Of a stretch of DNA of 64,000 bases, positions 12,259 to 40,323 are shown piece by piece. How positions within the stretch are numbered: the first letter of the stretch is position 1; the number at the start of each line of letters is the position of its first letter. Origin of the DNA: Candidatus Falkowbacteria bacterium RIFOXYD12_FULL_34_57 (lineage in GTDB: Bacteria > Patescibacteriota > Patescibacteriia > Patescibacteriales > UBA12075); assembly GCA_001780285.1 (NCBI GenBank), contig MFGN01000007.1, positions 7,346-71,345 on the forward strand, given 5' to 3'. The notes beneath the pieces were generated by a model. It did no database searches. It saw only the letters and a program-made list of their open reading frames with translations, and was not told the origin of the DNA. A program made the position numbers and the translations under genes.

Positions 12259-12326
12259 TTAAGTATAATAAATTGGACGCACAATTATGGTTGCGCTCCC
12301 TATTTAATAATTTTAAAATAAAATTT

Positions 12327-15004: not shown

Positions 15005-15051
15005 TTTATTATTTATTAAATTTAAGCTATAATTTATAAAGGAGGCTTAGA

Positions 15052-15771: not shown

Positions 15772-17931
15772 ATGTTTATTTTTGATTATTTATTAATATT
15801 TTTAGCTATAGGCATTATTTTTTGGTCTCTTCTATTTTTTTTCAAAAAGCGTAATATGCGAGAAGCAAAATATCTTGCATTTTTTATTTTTTTTACCGGT
15901 TTTTGGATGTTGTCATTATATATAGCCCTTTTTGTTAAGAGTGTTTTTGGTGTCATTCTTTGGACTAGAATGTCTTATTTTTTTGGTTTTTTAGCAATAC
16001 TTTATTTTTTGTTTTTTATATCAATTTTTTATAATTTATCTGAAAATTTATTTAAAAAATATAAAATTATTATTATTATTTCATTTATTTTTTGCATTTT
16101 AAATTTTATTCTTCCAAACAATTATATATATTCAGGTGTGGAAATTTTTAAAGAACAGACACCCCGTGGCCAATATGGAAATTTTTATAAATTTTTTTCA
16201 ATTTTTATTCTTTGTATTATTCTATTAACTATAAAAAAAATTTTTTCTGAATATAAAAATTTAACTAATAAAAAAAGACAACAAATAAAATATGTTATAT
16301 TGGGGGGTATTGTGGCCATACTTGGTGGAATGATATTTGTTGTTTTGTTGCCATTGTTTGGTATTGAAGAATTTTATAGCATTGGCCCATTATTTTTTAT
16401 GTTTTTTATAGGTTTTACCAGCTACGCAATTATTAAACACCAGCTCCTTGATATTAGAATTATAATACAACGCAGCATTATTTATTCTTTTTCGCTAGCT
16501 TTTATTGTGGCATTATACTTGGTGCTGCTTTTTATTTTTGAGTTTATTTTTAAGAGCATTACCAGTGTTACTATGACCAGTGCTATTACCACCGTGATTA
16601 TTGGTATTTATGGCGTGCCGCTGATTGAGGGATATTTTAAAAAAATAACTGATAAAATATTTTTTAAAAATAAATATAATTATTCTGTGGTTTTGTATGA
16701 AATTAGCGAAATTTTGAACAACAACATTAGTCTGGAGGTGTTGCTTGAAAAGATATTTAATAAATTCAAAAAAATATTAAAGGTTGAAAAAATAAGAATA
16801 ATTGTACTTGGACAGGGAATTGTTTTTGATGAATATGCAAATCTGCGAAGTATCAGAGAAGAATTTCCCAGTGAATTTGAAGAGATGATTGTGGGACATA
16901 ATAATTCAGTCTTAACCAATTTTGATATCTATAAATTACTTGAAAAGATTGATCATCAAAATAAGAAAGATTTGGTTTATAAAAAAGTTTTAGAGAGAGC
17001 TCAAAAACTTGAAAAAGAAAATGACTTTGAAATTTTTGTAGCTATGATTTCCAGAAAGAAATTAATCGGTCTTATGTTTTTAGGTAGAAAAATGTCCGGT
17101 GATGATTATACTAAGGAAGATATAAACTTATTAAAAACATTCGCTCACCAAGCGGCGGTTGCATTGGAAAAATCACAGTTATATGAAAAAGCCAAAGATT
17201 ATTCCAGGGAATTAGAAAAAAAAGTGAAAAAAAGAACATCGAGAATAAGCGGCCTGCAGGAAGAACAGAAACAAATGATGCTGGAAATCGCCCATGGTCT
17301 GCAAACACCGCTTACTATTATCAAGGGGCAGCTCTCTGCGCTTCAGGAAGAGATCAAACACTCAGAGAAAATAGAATCACTAGAGAAATCAATAGATCGT
17401 ATTTCTAAATTTATTTATGCCATGCTTAGATCGGCCAAGCTTGATTCTCGAGATAAAAGTGAATATAAATTGATAAACCTTAGTGCCCTATTGGAAGAAT
17501 TTTCAGAAAGTGTTCATATTATTATTCAGGAAAAAAGCATAAAACTTATTCACGACATAGAAGAAAATATTTGTATTATGGGAAACAAGGGGGAAATTGA
17601 AGAACTTTTGATGAATCTGATTAGCAATAGTATTAAATACATGAATGAAGATCGGGAAAATAAAATTATTATTAATTTGTATAGACATAAAAATAAACAC
17701 AACAAAGCGATATTAACTATAGAGGATACGGGTATAGGTATTAGCAGTGAGCATTTGCCGAATTTATTTAGCAAATTTTATCGTATTAAAGATGACACCA
17801 AGACAAAGGGCACGGGTCTTGGGCTGGTGATTTGTAAAAAAATAGTCGAAAAACATAATGGCAGAATAAAGGTGGAAAGTCAGGTTGGAAAAGGGACAAA
17901 ATTTATTATTGATTTTCCCTTGAAAAAATAG
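15772..17931 (+). CDS. Sensor histidine kinase with a polytopic N-terminal membrane sensor, GAF-like region, HisKA and HATPase_c
   Basis: About 8 hydrophobic helices in aa 1-290. H-box EIAHGLQTPLT. N/G boxes LISNSIKY, EDTGIGI, GTGLGLVICKKIV. Confidence 0.85.
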   Translation: MFIFDYLLIFLAIGIIFWSLLFFFKKRNMREAKYLAFFIFFTGFWMLSLYIALFVKSVFGVILWTRMSYFFGFLAILYFLFFISIFYNLSENLFKKYKIIIIISFIFCILNFILPNNYIYSGVEIFKEQTPRGQYGNFYKFFSIFILCIILLTIKKIFSEYKNLTNKKRQQIKYVILGGIVAILGGMIFVVLLPLFGIEEFYSIGPLFFMFFIGFTSYAIIKHQLLDIRIIIQRSIIYSFSLAFIVALYLVLLFIFEFIFKSITSVTMTSAITTVIIGIYGVPLIEGYFKKITDKIFFKNKYNYSVVLYEISEILNNNISLEVLLEKIFNKFKKILKVEKIRIIVLGQGIVFDEYANLRSIREEFPSEFEEMIVGHNNSVLTNFDIYKLLEKIDHQNKKDLVYKKVLERAQKLEKENDFEIFVAMISRKKLIGLMFLGRKMSGDDYTKEDINLLKTFAHQAAVALEKSQLYEKAKDYSRELEKKVKKRTSRISGLQEEQKQMMLEIAHGLQTPLTIIKGQLSALQEEIKHSEKIESLEKSIDRISKFIYAMLRSAKLDSRDKSEYKLINLSALLEEFSESVHIIIQEKSIKLIHDIEENICIMGNKGEIEELLMNLISNSIKYMNEDRENKIIINLYRHKNKHNKAILTIEDTGIGISSEHLPNLFSKFYRIKDDTKTKGTGLGLVICKKIVEKHNGRIKVESQVGKGTKFIIDFPLKK

Positions 17932-18008
17932 AGTAGTTTTAAGTATTTCAACAATAAAGCTATTGTTTTTTAATTTATTAAAATTAGCTATGATTACATA
18001 GTAATTTG

Positions 18009-18017
18009 TGGTATAAT
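18009..18017 (+). promoter_or_regulatory. Extended -10 promoter element TGgTATAAT
   Basis: TG at 18009-18010 and TATAAT at 18012-18017, about 80 nt upstream of the ATG at 18099. Confidence 0.4.
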
Positions 18018-18098
18018 ATTTGTTAGTTGAAAGTTTATAAAATAAAAAGTTTAGAAAATTAAAGATTTTAAGTTTATTATATTTTTTTAAAAAAAATT

Positions 18099-19124
18099 AT
18101 GTCTGAAGAAAATAAAAAGTGCTCATCTGTTTTGCCATCTATTTCACAGGAGGGGCTTGATAATTTGCCTTTCGGGGTCTATATAATCAAGAAGGGGGGG
18201 GTGGTAGAATTTTTCAATAAAGAAATGGCTAAAATCAGTGGAGTAAAAAATCCCAAAGAAGTAGAGGGTCAAAATATCCTCGAAATCCCCAACTATAAGA
18301 AATATGGACTAGATAAGTATGTTAAACAAGGTCTGGAAGGAAAGCCGTTTAAGTTAGAAAATATAAAATATGTGTCCTATATTGGAAAAAAAAGAACATA
18401 TCGAAGTTATTATGGTATTCCAATTAAAAACGAGAAAGGCGACACCATAAAACTTTTTTGTATAGTGGAAGATGTTACCGAGAAAAAGGAAAATCAAAAG
18501 AAAATACAAGACAACCTGGAAGAAAAAGAAGCATTGTTAAAAGAACTGCATCATCGGGTAAAAAACAATATGCAAATTATTTATAGTCTTTTAAATACAC
18601 AAGTTTCAAAAATTAAAGATGAGGAAGCATTGGAAATTATAAAAGAAAGCAAAAACCAAATTAAGAGCATGCTTTTAATCCATGAGAGCCTGTATCAGTC
18701 TAATAATTTAGCTGGTATAAATTTAAAAGAATATATAGAGGATTTGGCTGATAATTTGTTTGTTGCTTATGGTACTGATAGAGATTTGGTGCATTACGAC
18801 ATAAAAATAAACAGCGCTGAATTAAATATTGAAAAGGCGATTCCCTGCGCCCTAATTATTAATGAGCTTATTTCTAACTGTTTAAAACATGCTTTTCCCG
18901 GGAAACGAAAAGGTAATATAGAAATAAAATTAAGTTCTGTTGGTCGGGGATATGAGCTGGAAATCTGTGATGATGGTATTGGCCTTGATTGTGAGCCTAA
19001 TCTGGAAGACATTAAGAGTATAGGACTTGATTTGGTTTCTACGCTAACCAAACAGCTCGGGGGTATTTTAGATATTATTTCCAGTGGTGGCACCAAGATC
19101 AAGATAAGTTTCCCCAAGTTTTAA
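18099..19124 (+). CDS. Cytoplasmic PAS - HisKA_2 - HATPase sensor histidine kinase
   Basis: HisKA_2 signature LLKELHHRVKNNMQIIYSLL. ATPase region LIINELISNCLKHAF...DDGIGL. Confidence 0.8.
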   Translation: MSEENKKCSSVLPSISQEGLDNLPFGVYIIKKGGVVEFFNKEMAKISGVKNPKEVEGQNILEIPNYKKYGLDKYVKQGLEGKPFKLENIKYVSYIGKKRTYRSYYGIPIKNEKGDTIKLFCIVEDVTEKKENQKKIQDNLEEKEALLKELHHRVKNNMQIIYSLLNTQVSKIKDEEALEIIKESKNQIKSMLLIHESLYQSNNLAGINLKEYIEDLADNLFVAYGTDRDLVHYDIKINSAELNIEKAIPCALIINELISNCLKHAFPGKRKGNIEIKLSSVGRGYELEICDDGIGLDCEPNLEDIKSIGLDLVSTLTKQLGGILDIISSGGTKIKISFPKF

Positions 19125-19137
19125 TTGTTGTAAATTT

Positions 19138-20031
19138 ATGATAAATACAAAAAACATAAAAGGACAGAGAATTTTGATTGTAGAAGATGAGGCTATTGTA
19201 GCGAATGATATCAAAAATACTCTAGAGAAACTAAACTATTCCGTAGATGGTATTTTGGACACAGGAGAAGATGTGTTGAATATCATAAAAGAAAAGAAAT
19301 TAGATTTAATTTTGATGGATGTTAAGTTAAAGGGGAAAATAGACGGAATAGAGACAGCAAAAAGGATAAAAGAATTTAATATTCCGATTATTTACTTAAC
19401 AGCTTATAGCGACAAAAAAACCATTGAGAGGGCCAAAGAAACAATGCCTTATGGGTTTTTACTTAAGCCTTTTGACAATCAGGAATTAAATTCTGTGATT
19501 CAAATGGCGATTTATAAGCATGAAGCGGAAAAAAGACTAAAAGAATCCGAAGAAAAATATCGGTATTTATTGGACCATATTGAAGAATTTGTGTTAATTG
19601 TTGATCAATCGGGAAAAATATTATTTGCTAATAAAAGCGCGCTTCAGGTTGTTGGAAGAACAGAAGGCGAAATGGTGGGAAAGCCTATAAGTGATTTTTT
19701 AAGCAAAGAATCATTGCTTCTGGCTATTGAAGCCATAAAAAGTGAATTTGCAGGGAAAACCATAGATTTAGAAGAGGTTGAGGTAGTTAATAAATCAGGG
19801 GAAATTCGAAATTTAAAATTGGACCCAGGCTCAAAATTTGTAAAAGAAGAAGGTAAAATTATTGGAATGTTGATTAGTGGATTAGATATTACGGAACAAA
19901 AAAAAATAAATAAAGAAATAGAACAGCAAAACATAGCACTGGAAAAAGCTAATAAATTAATGGTTGGCAGAGAATTAAAGATGATAGAATTGAAAAACAA
20001 GATAAAAGAACTTGAAAATAAATTAAAATAG
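19138..20031 (+). CDS. Response regulator (REC) - PAS - C-terminal coiled-coil protein with no recognisable output domain
   Basis: ILIVEDEAIV..DLILMDVKLKG..LLKPF. PAS-like block (FVLIVDQSGKILFANKS...). Ends in ...ANKLMVGRELKMIELKNKIKELENKLK. Confidence 0.8.
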   Translation: MINTKNIKGQRILIVEDEAIVANDIKNTLEKLNYSVDGILDTGEDVLNIIKEKKLDLILMDVKLKGKIDGIETAKRIKEFNIPIIYLTAYSDKKTIERAKETMPYGFLLKPFDNQELNSVIQMAIYKHEAEKRLKESEEKYRYLLDHIEEFVLIVDQSGKILFANKSALQVVGRTEGEMVGKPISDFLSKESLLLAIEAIKSEFAGKTIDLEEVEVVNKSGEIRNLKLDPGSKFVKEEGKIIGMLISGLDITEQKKINKEIEQQNIALEKANKLMVGRELKMIELKNKIKELENKLK

Positions 20032-20037
20032 CTATAT

Positions 20038-21087
20038 ATGTTTAAAAAAATTATAATTTTATTATTTGTTGCATTATTTTTATCCGGTTGTGGACAGAAA
20101 ATTAAAACTGAAAACACGCAAGGAGAAAAAGAATTGAATATTTATAACTGGGAGGATTATTTAGGGGAAACCACGATTGCAGATTTTGAGAAAGAATTCG
20201 GCGTCAAAGTAAATCTTTTTACTTTTGAAGATGAAGATTTTATGCTCTCTGATGTGCAGGTTAATCCGGATAAATATGATTTAATTATTGCTTCCGATGG
20301 ATTGATTTATAACATGAGTGAATTAAAGCTTTTGTCTAAGATTAACAAGAACGATATTCCTAATTTAAAAAATATTGAAGATAAATTTTTAAATCTCTGG
20401 TATGATTCGGAAAATAACTACTCAGTTCCCTATTTATGGGGAACTACCGGGATTATTTTTAATACCAAATATATTCCCGAAGACACAGACAGTTGGTCTA
20501 TTTTGTTTAATGAGCAATATAAGGGAAAAATAGCTATGTTGAATAATAACGAGGAAGTAATTGGCGCCGCCTTGAAATATTTAAATTATCCCTTTATGGC
20601 CAAAAGCATAGAACAACTGGAAGAAGCAAAATTGATTGCGGAAAAACAAAAGGATATTATTAGTGGATATGAGGATGTTGTTGCTATTCGCAGTGAAATG
20701 ATTGACGAGAAATTATGGGTAGCTCAAATCTATAGTGGAGAAGCACTGTATGCGATGAATGAAAATAAAAATTTAAAATATATAATTCCCCGCGAAGGTG
20801 CTGAGGTCTGGATTGATAATTTGGCTATCCCGTCCGAAGCCAAGAACAAAGAAACGGCGGAGAAATTTATAAATTTTATTTTGCGTCCCGACATTAGCGC
20901 TGATATAGCCAATTACTTATGGTATGCCAATACTAATGACGCGGCTCGGGAATTTACAAATGCAGAAATTTTGGAAGATGAAGCGCTTTATCCTCCGCAA
21001 GATATTTTGGAAAAGTTAGAATACCTTAAACCCAATAAATTTAATAACGAGTATAATAAAATATGGTCACAGCTCCAATTAAAATAA
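20038..21087 (+). CDS. PotD/PotF-family polyamine-binding lipoprotein (orphan; no ABC permease or ATPase adjacent)
   Basis: Lipobox LFLSGCG. LNIYNWEDYL...FEKEFGVKV...YDLIIASDG...YSVPYLWGTTGIIFN tracks remembered E. coli PotD blocks. Confidence 0.8.
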   Translation: MFKKIIILLFVALFLSGCGQKIKTENTQGEKELNIYNWEDYLGETTIADFEKEFGVKVNLFTFEDEDFMLSDVQVNPDKYDLIIASDGLIYNMSELKLLSKINKNDIPNLKNIEDKFLNLWYDSENNYSVPYLWGTTGIIFNTKYIPEDTDSWSILFNEQYKGKIAMLNNNEEVIGAALKYLNYPFMAKSIEQLEEAKLIAEKQKDIISGYEDVVAIRSEMIDEKLWVAQIYSGEALYAMNENKNLKYIIPREGAEVWIDNLAIPSEAKNKETAEKFINFILRPDISADIANYLWYANTNDAAREFTNAEILEDEALYPPQDILEKLEYLKPNKFNNEYNKIWSQLQLK

Positions 21088-23924
21088 AATTTAGAACAAA
21101 ATTTTTTATTTTGTTGATCCTTGTTTCCGTTACCCCCCTGCTTCTTTTGTATTTTTTATTGCCGTTTCGCATTGAAGAAGAAACCAAGAAGATATTGGTG
21201 GAAGATTTTAAAGAACATGCCCACCACACCTCTGTAACAGTAGAGAGTTTTTTTGACCGTATAGAGCAGGATGTTATTTTATTGTCAAAGAACAGAATAA
21301 TAGAATCTCCGGAGACGGGCACAGAAGAGAAATTAAAAGAATTACAAAAAATGAAAGAAGTTAGGAATATATACGATGACATTATTTTAATAAATAAGGA
21401 TGGTAATGTCCTAACCTCTACCTCCTTTAATTATCGTGGTGCATGGGAATCACGCGATTATTTTCAAGAGGCTCTACAGGAAAAGGTGGTACTTTCAGAT
21501 GCGCACTTGATACTTGAACCTAAAAAATTAGTTTTAGTTGCTGTTGCTCCTGTTTTTTTTGGAAATGAAGTATCGTCCGTGGTTGCTATTCAGCTGGATA
21601 TGCAGCATGTTTGGAGCTTGATTAAAAATTTTACTAGTGATGAAGAATATTATTTGGTAAATAATAATGGAAGATTAATATCTGAATATGAAAATATGGA
21701 TATTTTTGAAGAATTTAAAACAAAAGAAGATGTTAAATGTTCATTGAGATTTAAAGAATACACAAAAGACGGTCAAAAAATATTAGAAACATCAGCCCCC
21801 ATAATGAAAAATAAAATTTATAAAGGAGAGGGGTGTTGGAATTTAATATTTACCAAGAATGAATCAGGATTATTGGTTTATATTAATGGAATTGAGAGAT
21901 TAATATTCTTGATTTTATTTTTGGCTATTTTATTGTCTGTTTTGGTAAGCGCATTTTTAGCAAGATCTATTTCTGCTCCAATTGAACAGCTTGTAATAGC
22001 CACAAAGGAATTTGCGCGTGGTAATTTTAATTTTAAAACCAAAATTAAAGCCAATAATGAATTAAAAATGCTTGGAGATTCCTTTAATAAAACAGGAGAA
22101 GAAATTTTAAAGAGTCATAATTTAGAAAAAATATATAGCAGGAAATTGGAAGATGAGGTGCGGGAAAAAACTGAAAAATTAACCAAAACGCTCAATTCAA
22201 TGAAACGCGACAAAGATAATCTTGAGAGTCAAAGAGTAGCAACATTAAATATTCTGGAGGATATATCCGAATCACAAAAAGAAATGGAGGATTTAAATAT
22301 TAAATTAAAAAAACGAACAGGAGAACTGGAGGCTCTGCGAAAATTGGGTAATGACCTGAGCGGGGTCCTGGATATGGAAGAGGCAGTTACTGTTATAAAT
22401 CAATATTTGGACAGCTTTTTGGATTTTAGCACGGTAACTTATTTAATTATAAATCCCATCAGGGAAGAAGAATTAATATATTCCACATACCTAAAAGAAG
22501 ATGTTAGTGAAAATTTTGTTGAAGAGGTGAAGAATGATTTATTGAAATTTATTGCTAATGAAACAGATAGTGAATTGTTATCGATTAAAAAAATTCTCAG
22601 TATTGTAAAACCTCATATTTTTGGTAAAAGGTTGAATAATAAAAATGAATCTAAAATTATATCTAAAATAATTTTCCCCTTAAGAATGGGAAGTTATTCT
22701 TTGGGGGCTATTCAGATTGCCTCAAGCAAGCCGGGGCTTTTTAGTAATACTCAAAACGGAATGACAAGCGCCATGGTAGCCACTTTTTCATTGTCTGTTG
22801 CCAAACTTCACACCTTAATACGCTCACAGCACTCTAAAACAATCTCCTTGGTTCAAAGTTTAAACGACGGAGTGGTGATGTTTAATATGGAAAAAAGCGT
22901 AGTGCTTACAAATAAAGCTATATTAGATTTTACTGGTTTTTCCAGCGATCATTTTAATTTATATGAATTTGACAAATTATTTAGCACTGTTGATGTAAAA
23001 AAAATGATTAATCAAATGTTTAGGGAGGGGAATATTGTTCATATTAGCGAAATACAATTTAAAAATAAATTTTATGAATTTTTAACAACGCCGGTAAAGG
23101 ATAGCTTTGGCAAAATTGTGGGCGGCGCTATTATTTTGCACGACATTACCCACTTAAAAGAAATAGATAAAATGAAGACAGAGTTTGTTTCCGTTGCTTC
23201 CCACCAGCTCCGCACCCCGCTTACTGCTATTAAGCTTTTTACTGAAATGCTTATTAATGGCGATGTGGGAGAGTTGCAAGACAGACAGAAGCAGTACCTG
23301 GGAGATATTTATGAGTCTACTACCAGAATGGTAAGACTGGTAAATGATTTGCTTAGCCTGTCTCGTTTAGAATCAGGAAGACTTCGTGTCGAACCCGTTG
23401 ATACTAATATGATTAGTTTTATTCAAAGTATAATTGAGGAAATTGTTCCGCTTGCTTCCAGTAAAAATATTAAAATAGTTTTTGAAAAAATAGTGGATGA
23501 ATTGCCAAGTGTGGCAATAGACCCAACGCTTATGAGACAGGTTATCAACAATCTAATAACTAATGCCGTAAGATATTCTTTGGGCAGAAAAGAGGGGCTA
23601 GTTAATGTTAATATTAAGAAAAAAGAAAAGAATATTGAGATATCTATAAAGGATAACGGAATTGGAATCCCTAAAGAAGTTCAGTCTAGAATTTTTGAAA
23701 AGTTTTTTAGGGCAGATAATGCCATAAAGAGCGAAACAGAAGGAACAGGATTGGGGCTTTATGTTTCCAAGATGATAGTGGAAAGTTCTGGAGGAAAAAT
23801 ATGGTTTAAATCGGAAAAAAATAAAGGTACTACGTTCTTTATTTCTATTCCTGTGGGCGGTATGAAAAGAAAAAAGGGGGAAAAGACATTGGCCGGCTCT
23901 AGTGGAGAAGTTAGTTATTCATAA
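21063..23924 (+). CDS. Sensor histidine kinase: TM - dCache-like periplasmic domain - TM - HAMP - coiled coil - GAF/PAS - HisKA - HATPase_c
   Basis: Its start overlaps the PotD-like gene by 25 nt. H-box FVSVASHQLRTPLT. LITNAVRY, DNGIGIP, GTGLGLYVSKMIV. The first TM helix follows Met1 directly, so no downstream start is plausible. Confidence 0.85.
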   Translation: MVTAPIKIKFRTKFFILLILVSVTPLLLLYFLLPFRIEEETKKILVEDFKEHAHHTSVTVESFFDRIEQDVILLSKNRIIESPETGTEEKLKELQKMKEVRNIYDDIILINKDGNVLTSTSFNYRGAWESRDYFQEALQEKVVLSDAHLILEPKKLVLVAVAPVFFGNEVSSVVAIQLDMQHVWSLIKNFTSDEEYYLVNNNGRLISEYENMDIFEEFKTKEDVKCSLRFKEYTKDGQKILETSAPIMKNKIYKGEGCWNLIFTKNESGLLVYINGIERLIFLILFLAILLSVLVSAFLARSISAPIEQLVIATKEFARGNFNFKTKIKANNELKMLGDSFNKTGEEILKSHNLEKIYSRKLEDEVREKTEKLTKTLNSMKRDKDNLESQRVATLNILEDISESQKEMEDLNIKLKKRTGELEALRKLGNDLSGVLDMEEAVTVINQYLDSFLDFSTVTYLIINPIREEELIYSTYLKEDVSENFVEEVKNDLLKFIANETDSELLSIKKILSIVKPHIFGKRLNNKNESKIISKIIFPLRMGSYSLGAIQIASSKPGLFSNTQNGMTSAMVATFSLSVAKLHTLIRSQHSKTISLVQSLNDGVVMFNMEKSVVLTNKAILDFTGFSSDHFNLYEFDKLFSTVDVKKMINQMFREGNIVHISEIQFKNKFYEFLTTPVKDSFGKIVGGAIILHDITHLKEIDKMKTEFVSVASHQLRTPLTAIKLFTEMLINGDVGELQDRQKQYLGDIYESTTRMVRLVNDLLSLSRLESGRLRVEPVDTNMISFIQSIIEEIVPLASSKNIKIVFEKIVDELPSVAIDPTLMRQVINNLITNAVRYSLGRKEGLVNVNIKKKEKNIEISIKDNGIGIPKEVQSRIFEKFFRADNAIKSETEGTGLGLYVSKMIVESSGGKIWFKSEKNKGTTFFISIPVGGMKRKKGEKTLAGSSGEVSYS

Positions 23925-24035
23925 TTAATATTTAATAAGAAGTTTATAAAATAGTAGAAAAATTATTCAAAATTGTATTTAGTTCAAAACAATAATTTTG
24001 ATTTTTGCACTTTACATTTTGAATTTTTAAATTAT

Positions 24036-24449
24036 ATGACCGAAGAACAAAAAAGCGACAAAAAAATAAAAATTTTGTTAGCTGAAGATGACAAATTTAT
24101 CGCTCGCGCTTATACTGATGGACTTACTAGATCGGGCTATGAGGTAATAGCTGTAACAGATGGGCAAGAGGCTATTAAGCAAGCAAAAGAAAAAAAACCG
24201 GATATTATTTTATTGGATTTAATTATGCCCGTAAAGAATGGTTTTGAAGCATTAGAAGAAATTAAATCAGATAAAAACATGAAAGATGTTCCAGTGCTTA
24301 TACTTTCTAATTTAGGACAAGATACTGATATTAAAAAAGGAAGGGATTTAGGGGCTGTTGATTATTTAATTAAATCAGATTATAGCATGACAGAAGTTAT
24401 TAAAAAAATAAACAAGTATTTAAATAACGCGCCCGAGAATATTGAATAA
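24036..24449 (+). CDS. Single-domain CheY-like response regulator
   Basis: KILLAEDDKFI..DIILLDLIMPVKNG..VDYLIKS; REC domain only. I trimmed the start from the listed 23973. Ends 17 nt before pilB. Confidence 0.85.
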   Translation: MTEEQKSDKKIKILLAEDDKFIARAYTDGLTRSGYEVIAVTDGQEAIKQAKEKKPDIILLDLIMPVKNGFEALEEIKSDKNMKDVPVLILSNLGQDTDIKKGRDLGAVDYLIKSDYSMTEVIKKINKYLNNAPENIE

Positions 24450-24466
24450 ATACTTATTGCATTCCG

Positions 24467-26158
24467 ATGAAAATTTCCAATTTAAAATTAAAGAGTATTT
24501 TAGTGGATCCGGGGCATATATCAGAAAAAGATTTTAATCAGGCCATGAATCTTTCCAATGAAAAGAATATTTCAATTGAAGATATTTTATTGGATCGCGG
24601 TTTGATTAATGATGGACAATTGGGGCACATTATTGCCGAGTTTATCGGCGTGCCTTATGTTAATTTAAGAAAAGAAAAAATTGACGACATGGTTTTAAAT
24701 CTTATTCCAGAGATAATTGCCAAGTCCAAAAAAATTATTATTTTTTATGAAGATGAAAATGAAATTAAGGTAGGAATGATGGATCCGCAAGATTTAGAAA
24801 TTATTCATATTTTAGAAAAAAAATTTAATCGTCAAATTATTCCGTATTATATCACCAAAAATGATTTTTTAGAAAATTTATCAAGGTATAATGTGGGTAT
24901 TGATGAGGAAGCATCTTCGGTGCTTGCTAAATTGCAGGACAATAATTTGGATATGGATGAAAAAAATAAAGCTAATGTTAGAATGGTTGAATTATTATTA
25001 GAGCATGGACATTATAGCAAGGCGTCCGATATTCACATTGAGCCGTATAAAAAAATAGTGATTGTGCGTTTTAGAATAGACGGGGTTTTGCATGATGTAT
25101 TGGAAATTCCTAAAAATTTGCTTTCATTAATAATTTCCAGAATAAAAATACTTTCCAAAATGCGGATAGACGAGCATTTTGCCGCTCAAGACGGGAAGTT
25201 TCAATTTAAGGTGAAAAATGATCAGATTGATGTGAGAGTTTCTATTGTTCCGATTACGGAAGGTGAGAATGTAGTAATGAGGCTTCTTTCAACTAAGAGT
25301 AGAAAGATGGACTTGGACAGCTTGGGGCTGGATAGCGCCGATCTTGATAAAATTAAAAAGGCTATTAAGAGTCCTCATGGCATGATTCTGGTTACTGGGC
25401 CAACAGGATCCGGTAAGACGACTACTATTTATGAATTTTTAAAGATTTTAAATACCAAAGAAATCCATATCGCCACCATTGAAGATCCGGTAGAATATGA
25501 TATTGAGGGAATAAGTCAGATACAAGTTAACAAAAAAACAAACCTAACATTTGCTAATGGGCTTCGGGCGATAGTTAGGCAGGATCCGGATATTATCATG
25601 ATTGGAGAGATAAGAGATCATGAAACAGCAGATATTGCTGTTAATTCTGGTCTCACTGGTCATTTGGTACTTTCAACACTGCATGCTAATGATGCGGCAA
25701 CAACCTTGCCCAGATTATTGGATATGGGAATAGAGCCCTATTTAATAGCGTCTACGGTTAGGGTGGTGATAGCACAAAGATTATTGAGAAAGATTTGTGA
25801 AAAATGTCGGACATCCTATGAGCTTCCTGAAAATGAAATGATTATTGTAAGAAATAATAAAAAATTAAAAGAAATATTTAATATAAAAGAAGGGGAAGAT
25901 AAAAAAATAACTTTATATAAGGGGTCTGGTTGCAAGGTTTGTGCCCATACCGGATACAGCGGAAGAATCGGCATCTTTGAGGTTTTAGAGAATCGTGAGA
26001 ACATAAAAGAACTCATTATAAAAAGAGCTAGTAGCAGTGAAATTTCAAAGATGGCGCGTGCAAATGGGATGACCACCATGTTTGAAGATGGAATTCAAAA
26101 AGTTATTCAGGGCATTACTACCCTAGAAGAGGTTTTGCGGGTAGCGGAGATAGTATAG
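24467..26158 (+). CDS. pilB: Type IV pilus assembly ATPase PilB (GspE family)
   Basis: Walker A GPTGSGKTTT, Asp/His boxes, and a tetracysteine motif (CEKC...CKVC). Confidence 0.9.
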   Translation: MKISNLKLKSILVDPGHISEKDFNQAMNLSNEKNISIEDILLDRGLINDGQLGHIIAEFIGVPYVNLRKEKIDDMVLNLIPEIIAKSKKIIIFYEDENEIKVGMMDPQDLEIIHILEKKFNRQIIPYYITKNDFLENLSRYNVGIDEEASSVLAKLQDNNLDMDEKNKANVRMVELLLEHGHYSKASDIHIEPYKKIVIVRFRIDGVLHDVLEIPKNLLSLIISRIKILSKMRIDEHFAAQDGKFQFKVKNDQIDVRVSIVPITEGENVVMRLLSTKSRKMDLDSLGLDSADLDKIKKAIKSPHGMILVTGPTGSGKTTTIYEFLKILNTKEIHIATIEDPVEYDIEGISQIQVNKKTNLTFANGLRAIVRQDPDIIMIGEIRDHETADIAVNSGLTGHLVLSTLHANDAATTLPRLLDMGIEPYLIASTVRVVIAQRLLRKICEKCRTSYELPENEMIIVRNNKKLKEIFNIKEGEDKKITLYKGSGCKVCAHTGYSGRIGIFEVLENRENIKELIIKRASSSEISKMARANGMTTMFEDGIQKVIQGITTLEEVLRVAEIV

Positions 26159-26202: not shown

Positions 26203-27285
26203 ATGGAGGAGAATAAAAAACAAAGAAATTTTTTAAATATATCTTTTGGCGGAGTAAATTTAAAAAGCAAAATACTTTTTGCCGACAATTTAGCCACCAT
26301 GTTGAAATCTGGTATGACCTTAACAGAATCTTTGATGATTATTGAGGATCAGGTGGCTGGGCGCATGAAAAAAATAGTGGGTTCAATTTTTAGGGCAGTA
26401 TCTTCCGGCAATTCTTTTTCTGAATCCTTAGATGTTTTCCCTAAAGTATTTTCTTCCTTTTTTATAAATACAGTAATGGTGGGAGAATCATCTGGTAATT
26501 TGGATAGTAATTTAAGAAATATTGCAGATGAATTAAAAAGAGAGAAAGATTTTTCTGAAAAGGTTCGCGGAGCAATGCTTTACCCCTTGATTATATTAAT
26601 CCTCAGTTTTGTATTGGGAGCAATTTTAGCATTTTTTGTGTTGCCGAAAATTATACCTATTTTTGCGGGGCTGAATGTTGATTTGCCGGCAAGCACCAGA
26701 TTTTTAATTTGGCTTTCAGGCTTGATTGAAAATTATGGAGCATGGATTTTTTTAGGCGCGTTTTTTATAATTATTTTTTTTATATGGCTTTTTAAACAAA
26801 AATTTTTTTATCCTATATCCCACTTTGTTTTTTTGCATTTTCCCATTATGGGAAATCTTACTCATAAAAAAAATATTGCCCAGTGCGCCCGTATCCTGGG
26901 TACTCTTTTGAAAAGCGGATTAACAATTGATAAATCGCTTTTTATCGCCGGAAAAACACTTAATAATTTTTATTATCAAAAAAGTTTGTTTAAAATTGCC
27001 GAAAATATCAGGGGTGGCGGAAGTTTGTATGAAAATTTGAAAAAAGAAAAAAAATATTTCCCCAAAATGTTTATTAGTATTGTTCAGGTGGGAGAAAGAT
27101 CGGGAAAACTGGAAGAAGAGCTTCTAAATTTAGAGAAATTTTACGAAGCCGAAGTAGAAGAGATAACTAAAAAACTAACCGTTATTATTGAGCCTGCTTT
27201 GTTGATAATCATTGGCGCCGTGGTCGCCTGGCTGGCACTGTCAATTATTACGCCGATTTACAAGGTTACTGGAAGACTTCATTAA
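26203..27285 (+). CDS. pilC: Type IV pilus platform protein PilC (GspF family)
   Basis: Duplicated GspF architecture with three TM helices (LATMLKSGMTL...; ...LGTLLKSGLTI...). ATG at 26203 preferred over the listed TTG at 26167. Confidence 0.85.
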   Translation: MEENKKQRNFLNISFGGVNLKSKILFADNLATMLKSGMTLTESLMIIEDQVAGRMKKIVGSIFRAVSSGNSFSESLDVFPKVFSSFFINTVMVGESSGNLDSNLRNIADELKREKDFSEKVRGAMLYPLIILILSFVLGAILAFFVLPKIIPIFAGLNVDLPASTRFLIWLSGLIENYGAWIFLGAFFIIIFFIWLFKQKFFYPISHFVFLHFPIMGNLTHKKNIAQCARILGTLLKSGLTIDKSLFIAGKTLNNFYYQKSLFKIAENIRGGGSLYENLKKEKKYFPKMFISIVQVGERSGKLEEELLNLEKFYEAEVEEITKKLTVIIEPALLIIIGAVVAWLALSIITPIYKVTGRLH

Positions 27286-27321
27286 TTAATCCCAGGGAGT
27301 ATAATTAAAGGCTATTGTAAT

Positions 27322-27828
27322 ATGTTTTTTGCGAAATTAATAAGAATAATTAACCCGGAACATGTCCCAAGTAAACAAAGTAATTTCTTGGGATTTTCAA
27401 TAATAGAGGTATTAATTGTCGTTGCTATTTTTATTATCTTATCAGCTATTTCTTTGCCCTTTTACAACAATTTAAATATAGAGTTATTGGTTGATAAAAC
27501 CAGAACTGATATTGTTCAAACATTGCGCTTAATTAAAATTAAAAGTGAATCCCGGGTTAATAATTCTGCACATGGAGTTTATTTTGATGCAAATACCATG
27601 ACACTTTATCAGGGAAGCTCATATGAACAAAGAAACAATGATTACGATCAAGAGTTTTTAATAGATGATGTTTTGTTGGTGAATTACAACCTGTCTTCAA
27701 GTGATATTAATTTTTCTAAAGGACTTGGATTGCCGTCTGCTACAGGAACGATTCAAATTTTAAGTGATTTAATAGATGCCGCTACAACCATAAGTATAAA
27801 TAATTTAGGTGTTATTGATTTTGATTAA
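27322..27828 (+). CDS. Pseudopilin / minor pilin (GspH/FimT-like)
   Basis: Prepilin-type N-terminus ...FLG/FSIIEVLIVVAIFIILSAI. Confidence 0.6.
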   Translation: MFFAKLIRIINPEHVPSKQSNFLGFSIIEVLIVVAIFIILSAISLPFYNNLNIELLVDKTRTDIVQTLRLIKIKSESRVNNSAHGVYFDANTMTLYQGSSYEQRNNDYDQEFLIDDVLLVNYNLSSSDINFSKGLGLPSATGTIQILSDLIDAATTISINNLGVIDFD

Positions 27829-27837
27829 GCAAATAAG

Positions 27838-28797
27838 ATGTATAAAATATTTTTAAAGAATTCTGGACAATCAATTTTGGAACTAGTGATAGCGCTGGGT
27901 GTTTTTTTGATTATTATCACAGTTTTTACTGATTTTATTTATGGAAATTTTGTTTTACTGGAAAGAGGAAGTGATTATGTTCAAGCTGAGGCAATAGCCA
28001 AGGAGGAGATAGAGGCGATTAGGTCGATAAAAAAAATGACCTGGAATGAATTTTTATATAGCACTAGCAGCGTTTCAGTTTTAAATAATAGGTGGGTTTT
28101 AAATGGGGAAGGAGTAATCGGAAATGTTGGTAAGTTTTTTTATTCCTCATCTTTTTATCCTGTTTACAGAAATACCCAAAAAGATATCGTTGAAGAATTA
28201 GATGGAGAAGAGGATATTTTAACCAAAAGAATGAAAACATTTATAGAGTGGGAAACTTCAGATGGTGTTAGTGCTATCATTGAAAAAAATAGTTATATCA
28301 GCGCTTGGAATAGCAAAAAATGGTTGCAAACTAATTGGTCTGGCGGACCGGGGCAATCTATCTGGGGTGATGCGTCTAAATACGAAAGTGATGATGGCAA
28401 TATTGATATTGGCATTGGCGGGCAATTAAGGATTGTTGAGGTTGCCACTTCTACTTATGTTTCTTCTGGGTACGCAATATCCTCAGCCTTTAATACAGAA
28501 AACAATTCTTCGTTTGTGGCTATTTTTTGGACAGAAAATATTCCTTTGGGGTGTGATATAAAAATTCAGATAAAAACCGCTCCAGATGCAGGGGGTATAC
28601 CCGGTATTTGGTCGGCTACCTGGTCTGGTCCGGATGGGGAGGATGGCAATGAGACGGATTATTATACTGTTCAAAGTGGACAAATAATCAATGTTGACCA
28701 TAATAATGATCAATGGATTAAATATAAAGTTTTACTGACTAGCGATAGTATAAACACCCCAGTTTTAAGCGAAGTTAGTTTTTATTATCAGCAATAA
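27838..28797 (+). CDS. Large pseudopilin with a C-terminal globular domain
   Basis: N-terminus ...NSG/QSILELVIALGVFLIII. The C-terminal ~160 aa begin WLQTNWSGGPGQ and end ...TPVLSEVSFYY. Confidence 0.55.
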   Translation: MYKIFLKNSGQSILELVIALGVFLIIITVFTDFIYGNFVLLERGSDYVQAEAIAKEEIEAIRSIKKMTWNEFLYSTSSVSVLNNRWVLNGEGVIGNVGKFFYSSSFYPVYRNTQKDIVEELDGEEDILTKRMKTFIEWETSDGVSAIIEKNSYISAWNSKKWLQTNWSGGPGQSIWGDASKYESDDGNIDIGIGGQLRIVEVATSTYVSSGYAISSAFNTENNSSFVAIFWTENIPLGCDIKIQIKTAPDAGGIPGIWSATWSGPDGEDGNETDYYTVQSGQIINVDHNNDQWIKYKVLLTSDSINTPVLSEVSFYYQQ

Positions 28798-28943
28798 GTT
28801 TAGAAGGACATAAGATACAAATAGTTTGTATTTTAAAGATTTTTTATGTCTTGTATCCTTGCAATTTCCATCTTCGAAATTATTTATACTATATGTGTAT
28901 AACCAAAAAACAAAATAACGGATTAAAAATTTATTCAGGGAAT

Positions 28944-29426
28944 ATGGTATATTTAAATGGTTTCACTTTAGTGGAAGCTTTAATCTATACTGCAATTATT
29001 GCTATTGTTGCCTCTAGTTTTATTTCTTTTGGTATTTTAATTTTAGAATTGAGAAGTAAAAGTGTGGCTATAGGAGAAATTAATATCAATGCCCAGAGTG
29101 CCTTAAATATAATTTCTAGTAAAATAAAATTAGCAGAAAGTGTTGGTTTTCCAACCGTGGGAGCAACTAGCAGTATTCTAGTTTTGAATATGGTTGACGG
29201 CAGTACCACGACTATGGAAATTGTTGATAATATTTTAGTTATAAAAGAGGGGGGGGTACAAATAAATATTACCAATAACAATATTTTGATTTCAAATTTA
29301 GAGTTTGTGTATATATTTTCAGATGGAAACAGCGCATCTGTAAGAATTTATTTTAATATCGCCTATAATAGCGAAATGGAGAATTATCAAAAAAACATTC
29401 AAACTACTGTAAGTTTAAGAAGATAG
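28944..29426 (+). CDS. Pseudopilin / minor pilin
   Basis: MVYLNG/FTLVEALIYTAIIAIVASSF. I trimmed the start from the listed 28851. Confidence 0.6.
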   Translation: MVYLNGFTLVEALIYTAIIAIVASSFISFGILILELRSKSVAIGEININAQSALNIISSKIKLAESVGFPTVGATSSILVLNMVDGSTTTMEIVDNILVIKEGGVQINITNNNILISNLEFVYIFSDGNSASVRIYFNIAYNSEMENYQKNIQTTVSLRR

Positions 29427-29459
29427 ATTTTATCTCCAGTTTAAATTGTTTATAAAAAT

Positions 29460-29861
29460 ATGGTTTGTGTTTACAAGCAACAATCAGGAGTAGCCATGCT
29501 TTTAATAGTTGTAATTATTAGCGTGGTTTTATTGTTAACCATAAAAACAGTATCGTTCTTAGGTATTAGTAATGTGGAAATGGCGGGAATCTTTGACAAA
29601 GGCGACAATGTTTTGGTTTTTAGCGAGGGGTGTGTTGAAGAAGCTCTGCGCCGAATTCAAATAGATAATAGTTACACAGTTAGTAATTTTCCTTTGTCTA
29701 TTGGCTCGGAATCTTGTATAATAAGTGTAGAGGATAATATTGGTCAAAAAATTATTACTATAGTTGGAAATACCGATAATTATTATAAAAAAATCAGAGT
29801 AATTATTTCTATAGTTGGCGAAGAAATAGCGATTCAATCTTGGGAAGAATTAACAGAGTAG
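29460..29861 (+). CDS. Putative minor pilin (PilX-like, non-canonical N-terminus)
   Basis: QQSG/VAMLLIVVIISVVLLL hydrophobic N-helix. Position within the pilin gene run supports the call. Confidence 0.45.
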   Translation: MVCVYKQQSGVAMLLIVVIISVVLLLTIKTVSFLGISNVEMAGIFDKGDNVLVFSEGCVEEALRRIQIDNSYTVSNFPLSIGSESCIISVEDNIGQKIITIVGNTDNYYKKIRVIISIVGEEIAIQSWEELTE

Positions 29862-29886
29862 TTAAATTATTAATTGTTAATAAATC

Positions 29887-31017
29887 ATGTTTATTAAAAA
29901 ATCAGTGGGTTTGGATATATCTGATCACACCATAGAAGTTGCTGAGTTGAAAAAAAGTGGTAATAATATTAGATTATCTAATTTGGGGCGTGTTCAACTG
30001 GATAAGGGCGTTGTGGTAAATGGCCGCATAAGGAATAAAACAAAATTATCCGAAACTCTTAAAAATGTATTAAAAAGCACTCAGCCAAATGCCGTCAAAT
30101 CTGTTGATTTTGTTTTTGGTTTATCGGAAAGTTGTGTTTTTACGCATATTTTTAAAATAAAAAACACAAAAGAAGAAATGTTTGAGCAGGAAATTTTAAA
30201 AGAAATTAAAAACACCATCCCCATTGAAGCAAAAAGATTGCTTTATGATTACCGTATTTTTCAGCCCTATAATTACAATGTGTTCAACACATCTAATGCT
30301 GAGAAAAAAAAGGGCGATGAAGATATTTTTGTGCGCCTAGTGGCTGTAGAAAAAAATATAATTTTTGAATGGAATGATTTTTTTAAAGAGAATGGTCTAA
30401 ATATTGAGATATTTGACATTGAGAGTCTGGCTACTTTTAGGGGGATGTTTGATGATTTTCCTGAAAATCCTGTGTGTATCGTGGATATTGGCGCCAACAA
30501 AACTAAAATATCAATTTTTACATTATTTGGCCTGGAATATTCATTTTTATTAAGTATAGCGGGAAATGATTTTACTGATATTGTTTCTAAATATTTTAAA
30601 ATTGATTTTGAGAAAGCAGAAAAAATAAAGCAAGAGAAAGGTTTTGTTTATGAAAAAAAAGACAAAAAACTTGAAAATGAAATAAAGGAAAAATTTAAAG
30701 AAATAATCAATCAATTAAAGTTAAACATTGATTATTTTGAGGAAAAGAATAATCAGGCGGTAAAAAAGATAGTTTTTATCGGGGGAAGCAGTAAAATGAA
30801 CGGTTTGTTTGATTATTTAAATTTATTAGATTTGCAGCATGAGTTTCAATTAGGTTCTCATCAATATGAAAATGTAAACTTAGAGTATATTGAAGCAATT
30901 GGACTTAATTTTAGGAATTTGGAAAAAAGATGGAAAAAAACTGATCCATGCTTTATAATAAATAGTAAGAGTAATATAAAATTATTTGAAAAAGTAAAGT
31001 TATTTTTTAAACAATAA
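29887..31017 (+). CDS. pilM: Type IV pilus assembly protein PilM (actin-like ATPase fold)
   Basis: VGLDISDHTIEVAELKK..., CIVDIGANKTKISI, VFIGGSSKMNGL. Confidence 0.75.
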   Translation: MFIKKSVGLDISDHTIEVAELKKSGNNIRLSNLGRVQLDKGVVVNGRIRNKTKLSETLKNVLKSTQPNAVKSVDFVFGLSESCVFTHIFKIKNTKEEMFEQEILKEIKNTIPIEAKRLLYDYRIFQPYNYNVFNTSNAEKKKGDEDIFVRLVAVEKNIIFEWNDFFKENGLNIEIFDIESLATFRGMFDDFPENPVCIVDIGANKTKISIFTLFGLEYSFLLSIAGNDFTDIVSKYFKIDFEKAEKIKQEKGFVYEKKDKKLENEIKEKFKEIINQLKLNIDYFEEKNNQAVKKIVFIGGSSKMNGLFDYLNLLDLQHEFQLGSHQYENVNLEYIEAIGLNFRNLEKRWKKTDPCFIINSKSNIKLFEKVKLFFKQ

Positions 31018-31032
31018 TTTAAATAAAATTTT

Positions 31033-31539
31033 ATGAAAATAATTTGCAGAAAAAAAGGGTTTACCCTAATTGAACTTTTAATAGTAGTGGCTATTATTGC
31101 CATACTTGCCGCCCTGGCCTTTGTGGCCCTAAATCCATTAGAGCGTTTTCAGGATTCTTATAATGCCCAAAGATGGGCAGATGTGAATGCTATTATGCAG
31201 GCGATTAAGTTATATCAACTGGATAATAATGGGGTTTATATAAGCGATATTGATGATTTGACCGTCGGTTTATATTATCAAATCGGCAGCGGTGACAGTT
31301 GTAATGATACTTGTTCTAATCCAACAGTGGTTTTGCAAACCGAATGTTTGGACTTAGAAGGGTTGGTTGATGAGGGGTATTTGGCTAGCGTGCCAATTGA
31401 TCCAAATGATACTAATGCCGGAGGGGACGAAACTAGGTATTATTTTATGAAAGCTAGCACGGGAACAGTTACGGTAGGAGCTTGCAGCGAGCAGCTTGGT
31501 TCGGATGCAGTTATTCAAGCAATTTCTGTTTCTCGGTAA
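31033..31539 (+). CDS. Major type IV pilin candidate
   Basis: Canonical class III signal KKG/FTLIELLIVVAIIAILAALA. Cys pairs in the C-terminal half. Last gene of the pilus run. Confidence 0.8.
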   Translation: MKIICRKKGFTLIELLIVVAIIAILAALAFVALNPLERFQDSYNAQRWADVNAIMQAIKLYQLDNNGVYISDIDDLTVGLYYQIGSGDSCNDTCSNPTVVLQTECLDLEGLVDEGYLASVPIDPNDTNAGGDETRYYFMKASTGTVTVGACSEQLGSDAVIQAISVSR

Positions 31540-37083: not shown

Positions 37084-37102
37084 TAAAACACAATTAAATA
37101 TA

Positions 37103-37275
37103 TTTATCATGATTGCGGTGAGAGATCTGGCTCTGCGACCCGCTGGCAACCATCTTTAAGAAAGTTTAAAGAAAGGTGCCCCATCCAGCCCTAAGAAGGG
37201 AGAGATAAAGGTCGATTTTTTATTGCGAATAAAAAAGTAAATCTTTCCCAAAATTTATATCAGGGAAAGTTTTTT
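37103..37275 (+). promoter_or_regulatory. SAM-I clan riboswitch (S-box or SAM-I/IV-like) with terminator expression platform
   Basis: P1 TTTATC (37103-37108) / GATAAA (37204-37209). Conserved cores GAGAGAUCUGGCUC...GCUGGCAACC and AAGGUGCCCCAUCC. Terminator CTTTCCC/GGGAAAG plus T6 (37243-37275). GGGAGAG (37198-37204) can alternatively pair with CTTTCCC as an antiterminator. Lies upstream of metK. Confidence 0.8.
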
Positions 37276-40311: not shown

Positions 40312-40323
40312 GCGCACACAAGC

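Follow-up and report, generated by a model that had tools for sequence, protein, structure and literature searches.

A PotD-like lipoprotein encoded with a dCache histidine kinase beside a receiver gene and the type IV pilus cluster of a Falkowbacteria genome

Gene arrangement

The DNA analysed here is a stretch of 64,000 nucleotides (nt), called the window, from Candidatus Falkowbacteria bacterium RIFOXYD12_FULL_34_57 (contig MFGN01000007.1, positions 7,346 to 71,345 of the forward strand). The host belongs to the Patescibacteria, or candidate phyla radiation (CPR), and its genome comes from the Rifle aquifer; the scaffold has 82 kb and a guanine plus cytosine content of about 32%. The system under study is encoded by three consecutive genes on the + strand, ie a gene for a PotD-like solute-binding lipoprotein of 349 amino acids (aa) at 20038..21087, one for a sensor histidine kinase of 953 aa at 21063..23924, and one for a receiver-only (CheY-like) response regulator of 137 aa at 24036..24449. 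They are followed on the same strand, at 24467..26158, by the gene for a PilB-type pilus extension ATPase. Between 15.8 and 31.5 kb all substantial open reading frames (ORFs) are on the + strand and tightly packed. The comparisons described below suggest that the lipoprotein and the kinase are partners in sensing, and that the receiver may carry their signal to the pilus machine.

The kinase ORF begins 25 nt before the stop of the binding-protein gene, giving an overlap (21063..21087, + strand) of the form ATG-19 nt-TAA. The same junction is found in three comparison loci, L004, L111 and L112, and since it is kept although their binding proteins are just 62-67% identical to that of the window, the overlap is not an artefact of start calling. 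The receiver gene starts 111 nt downstream of the kinase gene and ends at 24449, leaving a gap of 17 nt before pilB starts at 24467. Its start is most likely the ATG at 24036 (137 aa), not the TTG at 23973 given in a mechanical ORF list, because the public gene call agrees and the orthologues are 127-132 aa long.

The binding protein and its pocket

The N-terminus of the lipoprotein is MFKKIIILLFVALFLSGC, with the lipobox L-S-G-C and the lipobox cysteine, Cys18, encoded at 20089-20091 (+ strand). The protein matches Pfam SBP_bac_8 at 9.3e-28, and its AlphaFold model has a predicted local distance difference test (pLDDT) score of 92.1. Its closest solved relatives are Lmo0810 (4gl0, 1.7e-60), S. 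pneumoniae PotD (4eqb) and E. coli PotD, and the matches to solved PotD/PotF structures have E values of about 1e-45 to 1e-47. The top NCBIfam models are PotD, at 178.5 bits against an equivalog cut-off of 582, and PotF, at 152.8 bits against a cut-off of 636. Both scores are far under the cut-offs, and judged by these models the lipoprotein is not a PotD or PotF equivalog.

At the ligand-contact positions of E. coli PotD (W34, T35, E36, Y37, S83, Y85, D168, E171, W229, W255, D257, Y293 and Q327) the lipoprotein has W38, E39, D40, Y41, S86, G88, N170, E173, Y232, W258, D260, Y296 and E328, respectively. The equivalents of W34, Y37, E171, W255, D257 and Y293, the core polyamine-binding residues, are therefore retained, while Tyr85 is replaced by Gly, Asp168 by Asn and W229 by Tyr, and an extra Glu takes the place of T35. 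The resulting pocket is acidic and aromatic (W38, E39, D40, Y41, D87, E173, Y232, E235, W258, D260 and Y296), and no basic residue able to hold a carboxylate was noted among the pocket positions compared. Because the pocket is so strongly acidic and aromatic, a polyamine is the ligand that we would favour by a modest degree. The Gly at position 85 and the added Glu suggest that it is possibly a larger or more highly charged polyamine.

No pot-type transporter is encoded in the 64-kb window. The sole ATP-binding cassette (ABC) transporter there is an Opp-type system at 38587-44410, which has its own SBP_bac_5 binding protein and lies 17 kb from the lipoprotein gene.

The sensor kinase

The kinase has a first transmembrane (TM) helix at about aa 14-34, after a short basic N-terminus, and a second, TM2, at about aa 277-299. 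Between them is an extracytoplasmic dCache domain (about aa 35-275, 21165..21887), matched by Pfam dCache_1 at 51 bits against a cut-off of 45. It is followed by a HAMP domain (aa 298-348, 21954..22106; Pfam 5.9e-09), a linker, a PAS domain and the transmitter core at 23172..23855, composed of HisKA (aa 704-772, 1.4e-21) and HATPase_c (aa 820-931, 8.7e-31), all on the + strand. The kinase boxes are intact: SHQLRTP (H-box, aa 713) contains the predicted phospho-accepting His714, encoded at 23202-23204 (+ strand), and NLITNA (N, 830), DNGIGI (G1, 864) and GTGLGL (G2, 894) follow. The linker of about 250 aa (aa 351-600) has no family match in a Pfam search; a GAF-like domain had been suspected in it and is unsupported by that search.

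The AlphaFold model of aa 1-300 (pLDDT 85.6) places the dCache domain between two long TM helices. In Foldseek its top matches were the ligand-binding domains of PctA, Mlp24, PscC and Tlp3, with E values of about 1e-11. The motifs of the dCache family are YNYRGEW, SDAH and VVAGQ. PctA-type receptors have an R-x-W motif and an Asp that is expected to bind the amino group of the ligand. A role of the dCache domain as an amino-acid sensor was considered and rejected as unproven: the spacing of the family residues Arg125 and Trp128 is unlike R-x-W, Gln177 stands where the Asp would be expected, and no structural superposition was made.

An earlier note on this DNA, made from the sequence alone, had described a PotD/PotF-like gene with a lipobox, the lack of an ABC permease or ATPase nearby, a real overlap with the gene of a 953-aa kinase, and the dCache nature of that kinase. 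All four descriptions agree with the data given above. It had also placed the first TM helix directly after Met1, which is incorrect. The polyamine-binding residues for which it had proposed to check the pocket are kept at the six core positions and changed at Tyr85, Asp168 and W229.

Genetic pairing of the binding protein with dCache domains

Homologues of the lipoprotein number 1160 at E <= 1e-20. Their gene contexts were obtained by look-up and by scanning a single genome for each species, and 80 loci were analysed. In the loci of the closest relatives retrieved (L003-L013) the binding-protein gene is followed in 11 of 11 cases by a same-strand homologue of the kinase sensor domain. These proteins are 43-55% identical to the window lipoprotein by tblastn, or 55-62% by MAFFT. 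Their sources are Gribaldobacteria, Omnitrophota, Pseudomonadota, Aenigmatarchaeota and unassigned contigs; the gene content of two of these contigs suggests an archaeal origin. Five more distant relatives have the same arrangement. Relatives of 42% identity or less are mostly found in canonical potA-potB-potC-potD operons with the binding-protein gene last (25 loci). In a neighbour-joining tree all 25 of these potABC-linked proteins form one clade, and no dCache-linked protein falls inside it. Among the dCache-linked relatives in other loci, none of 30 has potA-potB-potC upstream of its gene.

The pocket residues of the two groups also differ. With the window protein added to the 30 comparison loci, 31 dCache-linked proteins were compared with the 25 transporter-linked ones in E. 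coli PotD numbering. Of the former, 29 have Tyr at position 229 and 2 have Phe, and of the latter 24 of 25 have Trp. Tyr85 is present in only 3 of 31 dCache-linked proteins, compared to 25 of 25 in the transporter-linked group, and position 35 is Glu in 18 of 31, compared to Gly, Ser or Ala in 24 of 25. The residues W34, E171 (as Glu or Asp), W255, D257 and Y293 are common to both groups, being retained in 31, 29, 29, 28 and 29, respectively, of the 31 dCache-linked proteins.

The pairing was also examined from the side of the sensor. An exhaustive HMMER search with the sensor domain gave just 434 representative clusters at E <= 1e-3 among 1.84 billion, so that the family is a small one. The best 72 of the 434 all have dCache_1; 38 have HATPase_c and 14 have REC, as in hybrid kinases, and among the other outputs are GGDEF (5), EAL (3), HD-GYP (1) and SpoIIE (1), with many showing none beyond HAMP. 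A metagenome scan based on a 6-sequence sensor alignment and the pattern [TV][DST][YF]NYRG[EAD]W recovered 25 loci, a sample biased to that motif. Where enough upstream DNA was available, a PotD-like gene was immediately upstream in 13 of 18 of these loci. The five exceptions are one orthologous group and count as one exception. Two members with an output acting on cyclic diguanylate (c-di-GMP), L115 (dCache-PAS-GGDEF-EAL) and L116 (dCache-HAMP-GGDEF-HD-GYP), each have a gene for a 358-aa PotD-like protein 13 nt upstream, and these proteins are 43.5% identical to that of the window, with the same pocket signature.

The pairing is thus reciprocal and does not depend on the output domain. It extends over several phyla, and probably over both domains of life, and along with it the transporter genes have been lost and the pocket remodelled. 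Such a pattern would be expected of a dedicated co-sensor and is much stronger than simple adjacency. Judged from gene content, the genetic coupling of the binding protein and dCache is obligate. In evolution, the gene for the binding protein and the 5' part of the receptor gene, which codes for dCache, act like a cassette of two parts that supplies the input; it occurs with kinases and hybrid kinases, with GGDEF-EAL and GGDEF-HD-GYP enzymes, and with dCache-HAMP proteins that have no output. It is probable, with good confidence, that the binding protein acts as a co-sensor with the dCache domain of the kinase.

Several variations on the arrangement were seen. The exception lineage (L090, L092, L094, L098 and L100) has genes for two conserved small Cys-rich proteins (about 150 aa, CxxCGxCC) directly 5' of the kinase gene. 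Tandem PotD-like genes precede a single dCache kinase gene in L013 (7995-10189), L106 (2880-4948) and L108 (3-1464), which suggests that two binding proteins may feed one receptor. Short dCache-HAMP partners of 400-450 aa with no recognisable output are encoded in L004 (2409-3650), L005 (5882-7087), L006 and L007; possible partners for them are kinases without a sensor, such as that of 253 aa in L114, described below. A similar protein is encoded in the window at 51759-52991, as part of a second pair on the - strand: a gene for a 630-aa protein with two NMT1/THI5-like domains (54908-53016) is followed after 24 nt by that for the 410-aa output-less dCache_1-HAMP protein (52991-51759). An NMT1 protein gene followed by a dCache kinase gene is also found in L005, beside the PotD-like/dCache-HAMP pair. 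Finally, Blastocatellia and some Clostridia have a protein of 610-640 aa whose C-terminal part is the PotD-like domain and for which 7-8 TM helices are predicted; it appears to be a fusion of a permease with a binding protein (L039, L040, L041, L045, L047, L050, L052, L058, L059, L069 and L083).

The receiver and the pilus genes

The receiver protein (Pfam Response_reg, 3.4e-23) is a single domain with its functional residues intact, ie the acidic pocket D18/D19, S91, K113 and the predicted phospho-acceptor Asp61, encoded at 24216-24218 (+ strand). The earlier note had called it a single-domain CheY gene 17 nt before pilB. The domain content and the gap are as described, but a chemotaxis CheY was rejected: the partner is a HisKA kinase, and no che-family genes were found by Pfam among the 29 larger ORFs of the window that were scanned, a set that included every gene from 8.8 to 33.3 kb and left out the ORFs at about 55-64 kb and several small ones. 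The name CheY describes the fold and not the pathway, and on its sequence the protein is a receiver-only response regulator. A PilS-PilR system was also ruled out, the regulator being a receiver domain alone, of 137 aa, without the NtrC-type AAA+ and DNA-binding domains.

The pilB product has an N-terminal MshEN domain (Pfam T2SSE 8.8e-132, MshEN 7.3e-12). The remaining type IV pilus cluster occupies 26203..31539, also on the + strand, with genes for PilC (26203-27285, Pfam T2SSF), three pilin-like proteins (27322-27828, 28944-29426 and 31033-31539, Pfam N_methyl) and PilM (29887-31017, Pfam PilM_2), and two genes of unknown function known from the public gene calls (27838-28797 and 29460-29861).

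Orthologues of pilB were examined on six other Patescibacteria contigs, at 58-78% identity. A kinase gene and one or two receiver-only genes lie beside pilB in all six. In two of them, L111 and L112, the full arrangement is repeated, with a binding protein of 65-67% identity, the 25-nt overlap, a 953-aa kinase (71-73%), a receiver (85-87%), pilB and pilC. In the others the input differs, and no PotD-like gene was called in L113, L117 or L118. The L113 kinase is 45% identical to the window kinase over aa 281-946 and its receiver 67.5% identical; the kinase carries an unrelated helical domain as its N-terminal sensor, the locus lacks a binding-protein gene, and a PAS-HisKA_2 kinase (58% identical) and a REC-PAS protein are encoded upstream of the pilB-linked kinase. 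The L117 kinase is 44.5% identical over aa 270-944, with a receiver of 63.5% identity, and is essentially without an extracytoplasmic domain. Its gene is preceded, with a 4-nt overlap, by that for a 928-aa sensor-like protein with PF22309 (HK-GC-Chemotax_sensor) (L117 1-4534), which looks like an alternative way to supply the input in trans. L118 encodes a cytoplasmic PAS kinase, 40% identical from PAS to the C-terminus, and two receivers, with a receiver identity of 51.6%. In L114 the genes for a short, sensor-less kinase of 253 aa and a receiver lie between pilB and pilC.

The receiver orthologues of L111, L112, L113 and L117 are always encoded directly before pilB, and the kinase transmitter is orthologous in three of the four pilB loci with a differing sensor part. 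Since the transmitters are orthologous while the sensors differ, the transmitter, the receiver and PilB form a conserved unit with exchangeable input. The binding protein and dCache domain look like a swappable input cassette on a pilus-linked kinase. Within the loci compared, the kinase-receiver-pilB gene order is conserved across Patescibacteria. At L111 7726-13632, after pilC, a gene for a 1968-aa surface protein with weak or faint matches to PKD, Big and peptidase C25 takes the place of the pilin-like genes or accompanies them, and therefore the cargo or adhesin part of the pilus cluster varies between strains.

Other genes of the window

Upstream of the binding-protein gene, and also on the + strand, are Pfam-assigned genes for a 7TM-GAF histidine kinase (15772-17931), a PAS-HisKA_2 kinase (18099-19124) and a REC-PAS protein (19138-20031), the last ending 6 nt 5' of the binding-protein gene. 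These co-oriented signalling genes (15772..20031) possibly belong to the same network as the lipoprotein and the kinase.

Further upstream is a cassette of three genes at 13218-15729 (+), which the earlier note had called a putative polyamine/guanidino cassette and had linked in theme to the sensing system. It encodes a 436-aa protein with SemiSWEET-like TM repeats and, on the public contig, a precomputed Pfam match to PF27704 (guanidinoacetate N-methyltransferase-like), a 158-aa AdoMet-decarboxylase-like protein (Pfam 80 bits; NCBIfam 66.8 bits, under the cut-off of 75.65), and a 225-aa protein with a weak N-acetyltransferase match. Judged by these domain matches, the cassette is compatible with synthesis of a modified polyamine.

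Two other parts of the window deserve mention. At 255-1619 (+) is a gene for a dockerin protein and at 2234-3994 (+) one for a protein with cohesin and Ig-like domains, surface-assembly equipment that is unusual for a small-genome Patescibacterium. A SAM riboswitch (Rfam RF00162, 57.4 bits) at 37101-37211 (+) is directly 5' of the S-adenosylmethionine synthetase gene (37296-38342).

Proposed mechanism and alternatives

The reading that we prefer, by a small balance in its favour, is a binding-protein-dependent two-component system feeding the type IV pilus machine. The lipoprotein, tethered to the outer face of the membrane and with a PotD/PotF fold but no pot-type transporter encoded nearby, would capture a small cationic amine, most likely a polyamine. 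In its ligand-bound or free form it would dock on the dCache domain of the kinase, in the manner of NspS on MbaA and LuxP on LuxQ (PMC8050422), so that signalling through TM2 and HAMP would change. The kinase would then phosphorylate Asp61 of the receiver, a step suggested by the conserved adjacency of the two genes. Because it has no DNA-binding domain, the receiver must act by protein contact, most plausibly with PilB, or else with PilC or PilM, and pilus extension would be tuned in this way. By analogy with receivers that act on pili in Pseudomonas, Synechocystis and Xanthomonas, we place this last step a little ahead of its alternatives.

The co-occurrence of the binding protein and the kinase that the earlier note had proposed to test is found in both directions and with any output domain, and its link of the kinase and receiver to pili has strong comparative support in the six pilB orthologue loci. 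Its polyamine-sensing phosphorelay controlling pili therefore stands well as far as the wiring is concerned, from binding protein to kinase and from kinase and receiver to the pilus, but the word polyamine is still an inference.

Some of the data count against the preferred reading, and are given here with the explanations that they would favour. Of these explanations, the one that survives best is that the sensor is real and the signal is different: gamma-aminobutyric acid (GABA), 5-aminovalerate, agmatine, an acetylated or long-chain polyamine or another amine, or else a molecule which is bound by the dCache domain while the binding protein modulates or delivers. We consider this unlikely, though it has to be taken seriously. 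The loss of Tyr85 and the change of Asp168 to Asn mean that the classical spermidine/putrescine geometry is not guaranteed, the Trp229 to Tyr change and the Glu gained at position 35 add to the departure, and SBP_bac_8 proteins predicted as spermidine/putrescine binders have proved to bind GABA or 5-aminovalerate (PMC11113362). The dCache model is most like domains that bind small ligands directly (PctA, Mlp24), and because the most conserved residues of its family (YNYRGEW, SDAH and AGQ) are in the membrane-distal module, the kinase may bind a ligand itself. On the other hand, the pocket is still as acidic and aromatic as a polycation needs, with no carboxylate-holding basic residue noted at the positions compared. 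In NspS, a proven polyamine sensor, Tyr233 and Asp236 are reported to be used (PMC9993111), and these match Y232/E235 of the lipoprotein and Y233/D236 of the L115 protein by residue number alone.

A second explanation, which is less likely again, is that the receiver serves as a sink for phosphate, or as an intermediate in signalling by the neighbouring PAS-HisKA_2 and REC-PAS proteins, and that it stands before pilB only because the genes are transcribed together. Inside 12 kb there are genes for three kinases and for three receiver proteins (12273-13001, 19138-20031 and 24036-24449), so that pairing by adjacency could be wrong, and L113 has likewise kept genes for PAS-HisKA_2 and REC-PAS proteins. 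A scan for promoters and terminators over 17800-24600 gave counts equal to those of shuffled sequence, with no signal above chance. However, the kinase and receiver-only pair is beside pilB in every one of the six orthologue loci, and in L114, L117 and L118, which have the pair, neither a PAS-HisKA_2 nor a REC-PAS gene is called in the part examined. The L114 pair is even placed between pilB and pilC, and other bacteria offer known cases of receiver proteins acting on PilB (10.1101/2021.06.11.447907; PMC13507683).

It is improbable that the lipoprotein is an ordinary transport binding protein, with potABC elsewhere in the genome and a kinase whose adjacency is incidental or reflects co-regulation only: it does have the full PotD/PotF fold and most of the ligand-contact residues, the genome is represented by one 82-kb contig so that potABC could lie outside it, and for the kinases AgtS and AruS a published study detected no interaction with the adjacent SBP_bac_8 proteins (PMC11113362), but the dCache-linked relatives lack upstream potABC genes and fall outside the transporter-linked clade, the pairing holds across phyla, probably both domains of life and five output types, the 25-nt overlap is conserved, and a downstream regulator without a DNA-binding domain would give no direct control of a transporter operon.

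A wider proposal, which is speculative and in its entirety unlikely to be correct, is that a PotD-like protein and a dCache domain are an ancient, mobile two-gene input cassette of bacteria and archaea, of which NspS-MbaA is one proteobacterial instance. In Patescibacteria it would have been grafted onto a conserved but so far undescribed kinase-receiver-PilB module. An episymbiont could then detect a polyamine, made by its host or by itself, and in response start or stop pilus extension, and with it attachment to the host, by contact between receiver and motor without transcription.

Significance

Type IV pili are central to the finding and binding of hosts by cultivated Patescibacteria (PMC9894109, PMC11623550), and the regulation of pilus extension and retraction in this group is stated to be open in a study of Saccharibacteria (PMC11623550). 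The literature searched contained no paper on a PotD-like protein paired with a histidine kinase, none on a kinase-receiver module in the pilus operons of Patescibacteria, and none joining the candidate phyla radiation, two-component systems, pilB and a response regulator. Binding-protein-dependent dCache receptors are already known; the module described here is widely distributed and apparently undescribed.

Together, this locus and those related to it delineate a kinase-receiver-pilB module that is conserved and has sensors that can be exchanged, and they offer a testable route for possible pilus control in tiny symbionts. The PotD-like lipoprotein is a concrete input which can be purified, so that the sensing that governs pilus deployment by symbionts becomes a question of ligand screening and interaction, and the sensing of host or environment by CPR pili becomes approachable by experiment. 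The pocket signature (W-E-D-Y, with Tyr85 lost and Tyr at position 229) could also be used to correct the annotation of proteins that are systematically mis-annotated as transport proteins.

Comparison with known systems

The binding proteins of the PotABCD/PotFGHI importers, PotD and PotF, have the same fold as the lipoprotein and the same residues at the equivalents of W34, Y37, E171, W255, D257 and Y293. They differ from the window protein in that the latter has no potABC nearby, scores under the equivalog cut-offs, falls outside the transporter-linked clade and has an altered pocket.

On the output side, PilG/PilH of the Chp system, the PATAN-REC proteins of Synechocystis, which bind PilB1, and DrdR of Xanthomonas are also receivers without DNA-binding domains, and they act on type IV pili by contact (PMC10519157; 10.1101/2021.06.11.447907; PMC13507683; PMC11656802). 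Those regulators of the pilus motor have a CheA-type kinase with chemoreceptor-like sensors, or extra domains in the regulator; the Patescibacterium encodes a classical HisKA kinase and a receiver with no further domain within its pilus operon.

Precedents for a binding protein acting with a receptor are LuxP with LuxQ, and NspS (SBP_bac_8) with MbaA, which has a dCache-like domain (PMC8050422). In Vibrio harveyi, LuxP docks sideways on the dCache-type domain of a histidine kinase (PMC8050422). LuxP is, however, a Peripla_BP_4 protein which binds autoinducer-2 (AI-2), and LuxQ is a hybrid kinase that signals through an Hpt relay to a transcription factor. In Halobacterium salinarum the genes for the binding proteins BasB and CosB adjoin those for the dCache-like transducers BasT and CosT, and the binding proteins carry lipid anchors in an organism that has no periplasm (PMC8050422). 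There the output is a chemotaxis transducer, and the binding proteins are of the Peripla_BP_6 and OpuAC families.

The functionally closest system is probably NspS-MbaA, on the basis of architecture and published descriptions and not of the Vibrio sequences, although the kinase output precludes strict membership. In both, a PotD-like SBP_bac_8 protein without a transporter is encoded upstream of, and overlapping, a receptor with a dCache-like domain between two TM helices, and in NspS-MbaA the binding protein is a ligand-dependent co-sensor (PMC8050422, PMC9993111). The nspS-mbaA overlap is 16 bp in V. cholerae and 3 bp in S. meliloti (PMC9993111). The output of MbaA is GGDEF-EAL and that of the window system a HisKA/HATPase_c kinase with a receiver-only partner; the window host is a monoderm-type candidate-phylum bacterium and its binding protein a lipoprotein; and the genes downstream are those of a type IV pilus, where NspS-MbaA controls the biofilm matrix. 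The layout of NspS-MbaA is nevertheless found within the sensor family of the window, as L115 has a GGDEF-EAL output and its PotD-like gene 13 nt upstream. Pairs of the NspS-MbaA type are reported in <1.4% of proteobacterial genomes (PMC9993111), and the relatives described here extend the principle well past these.

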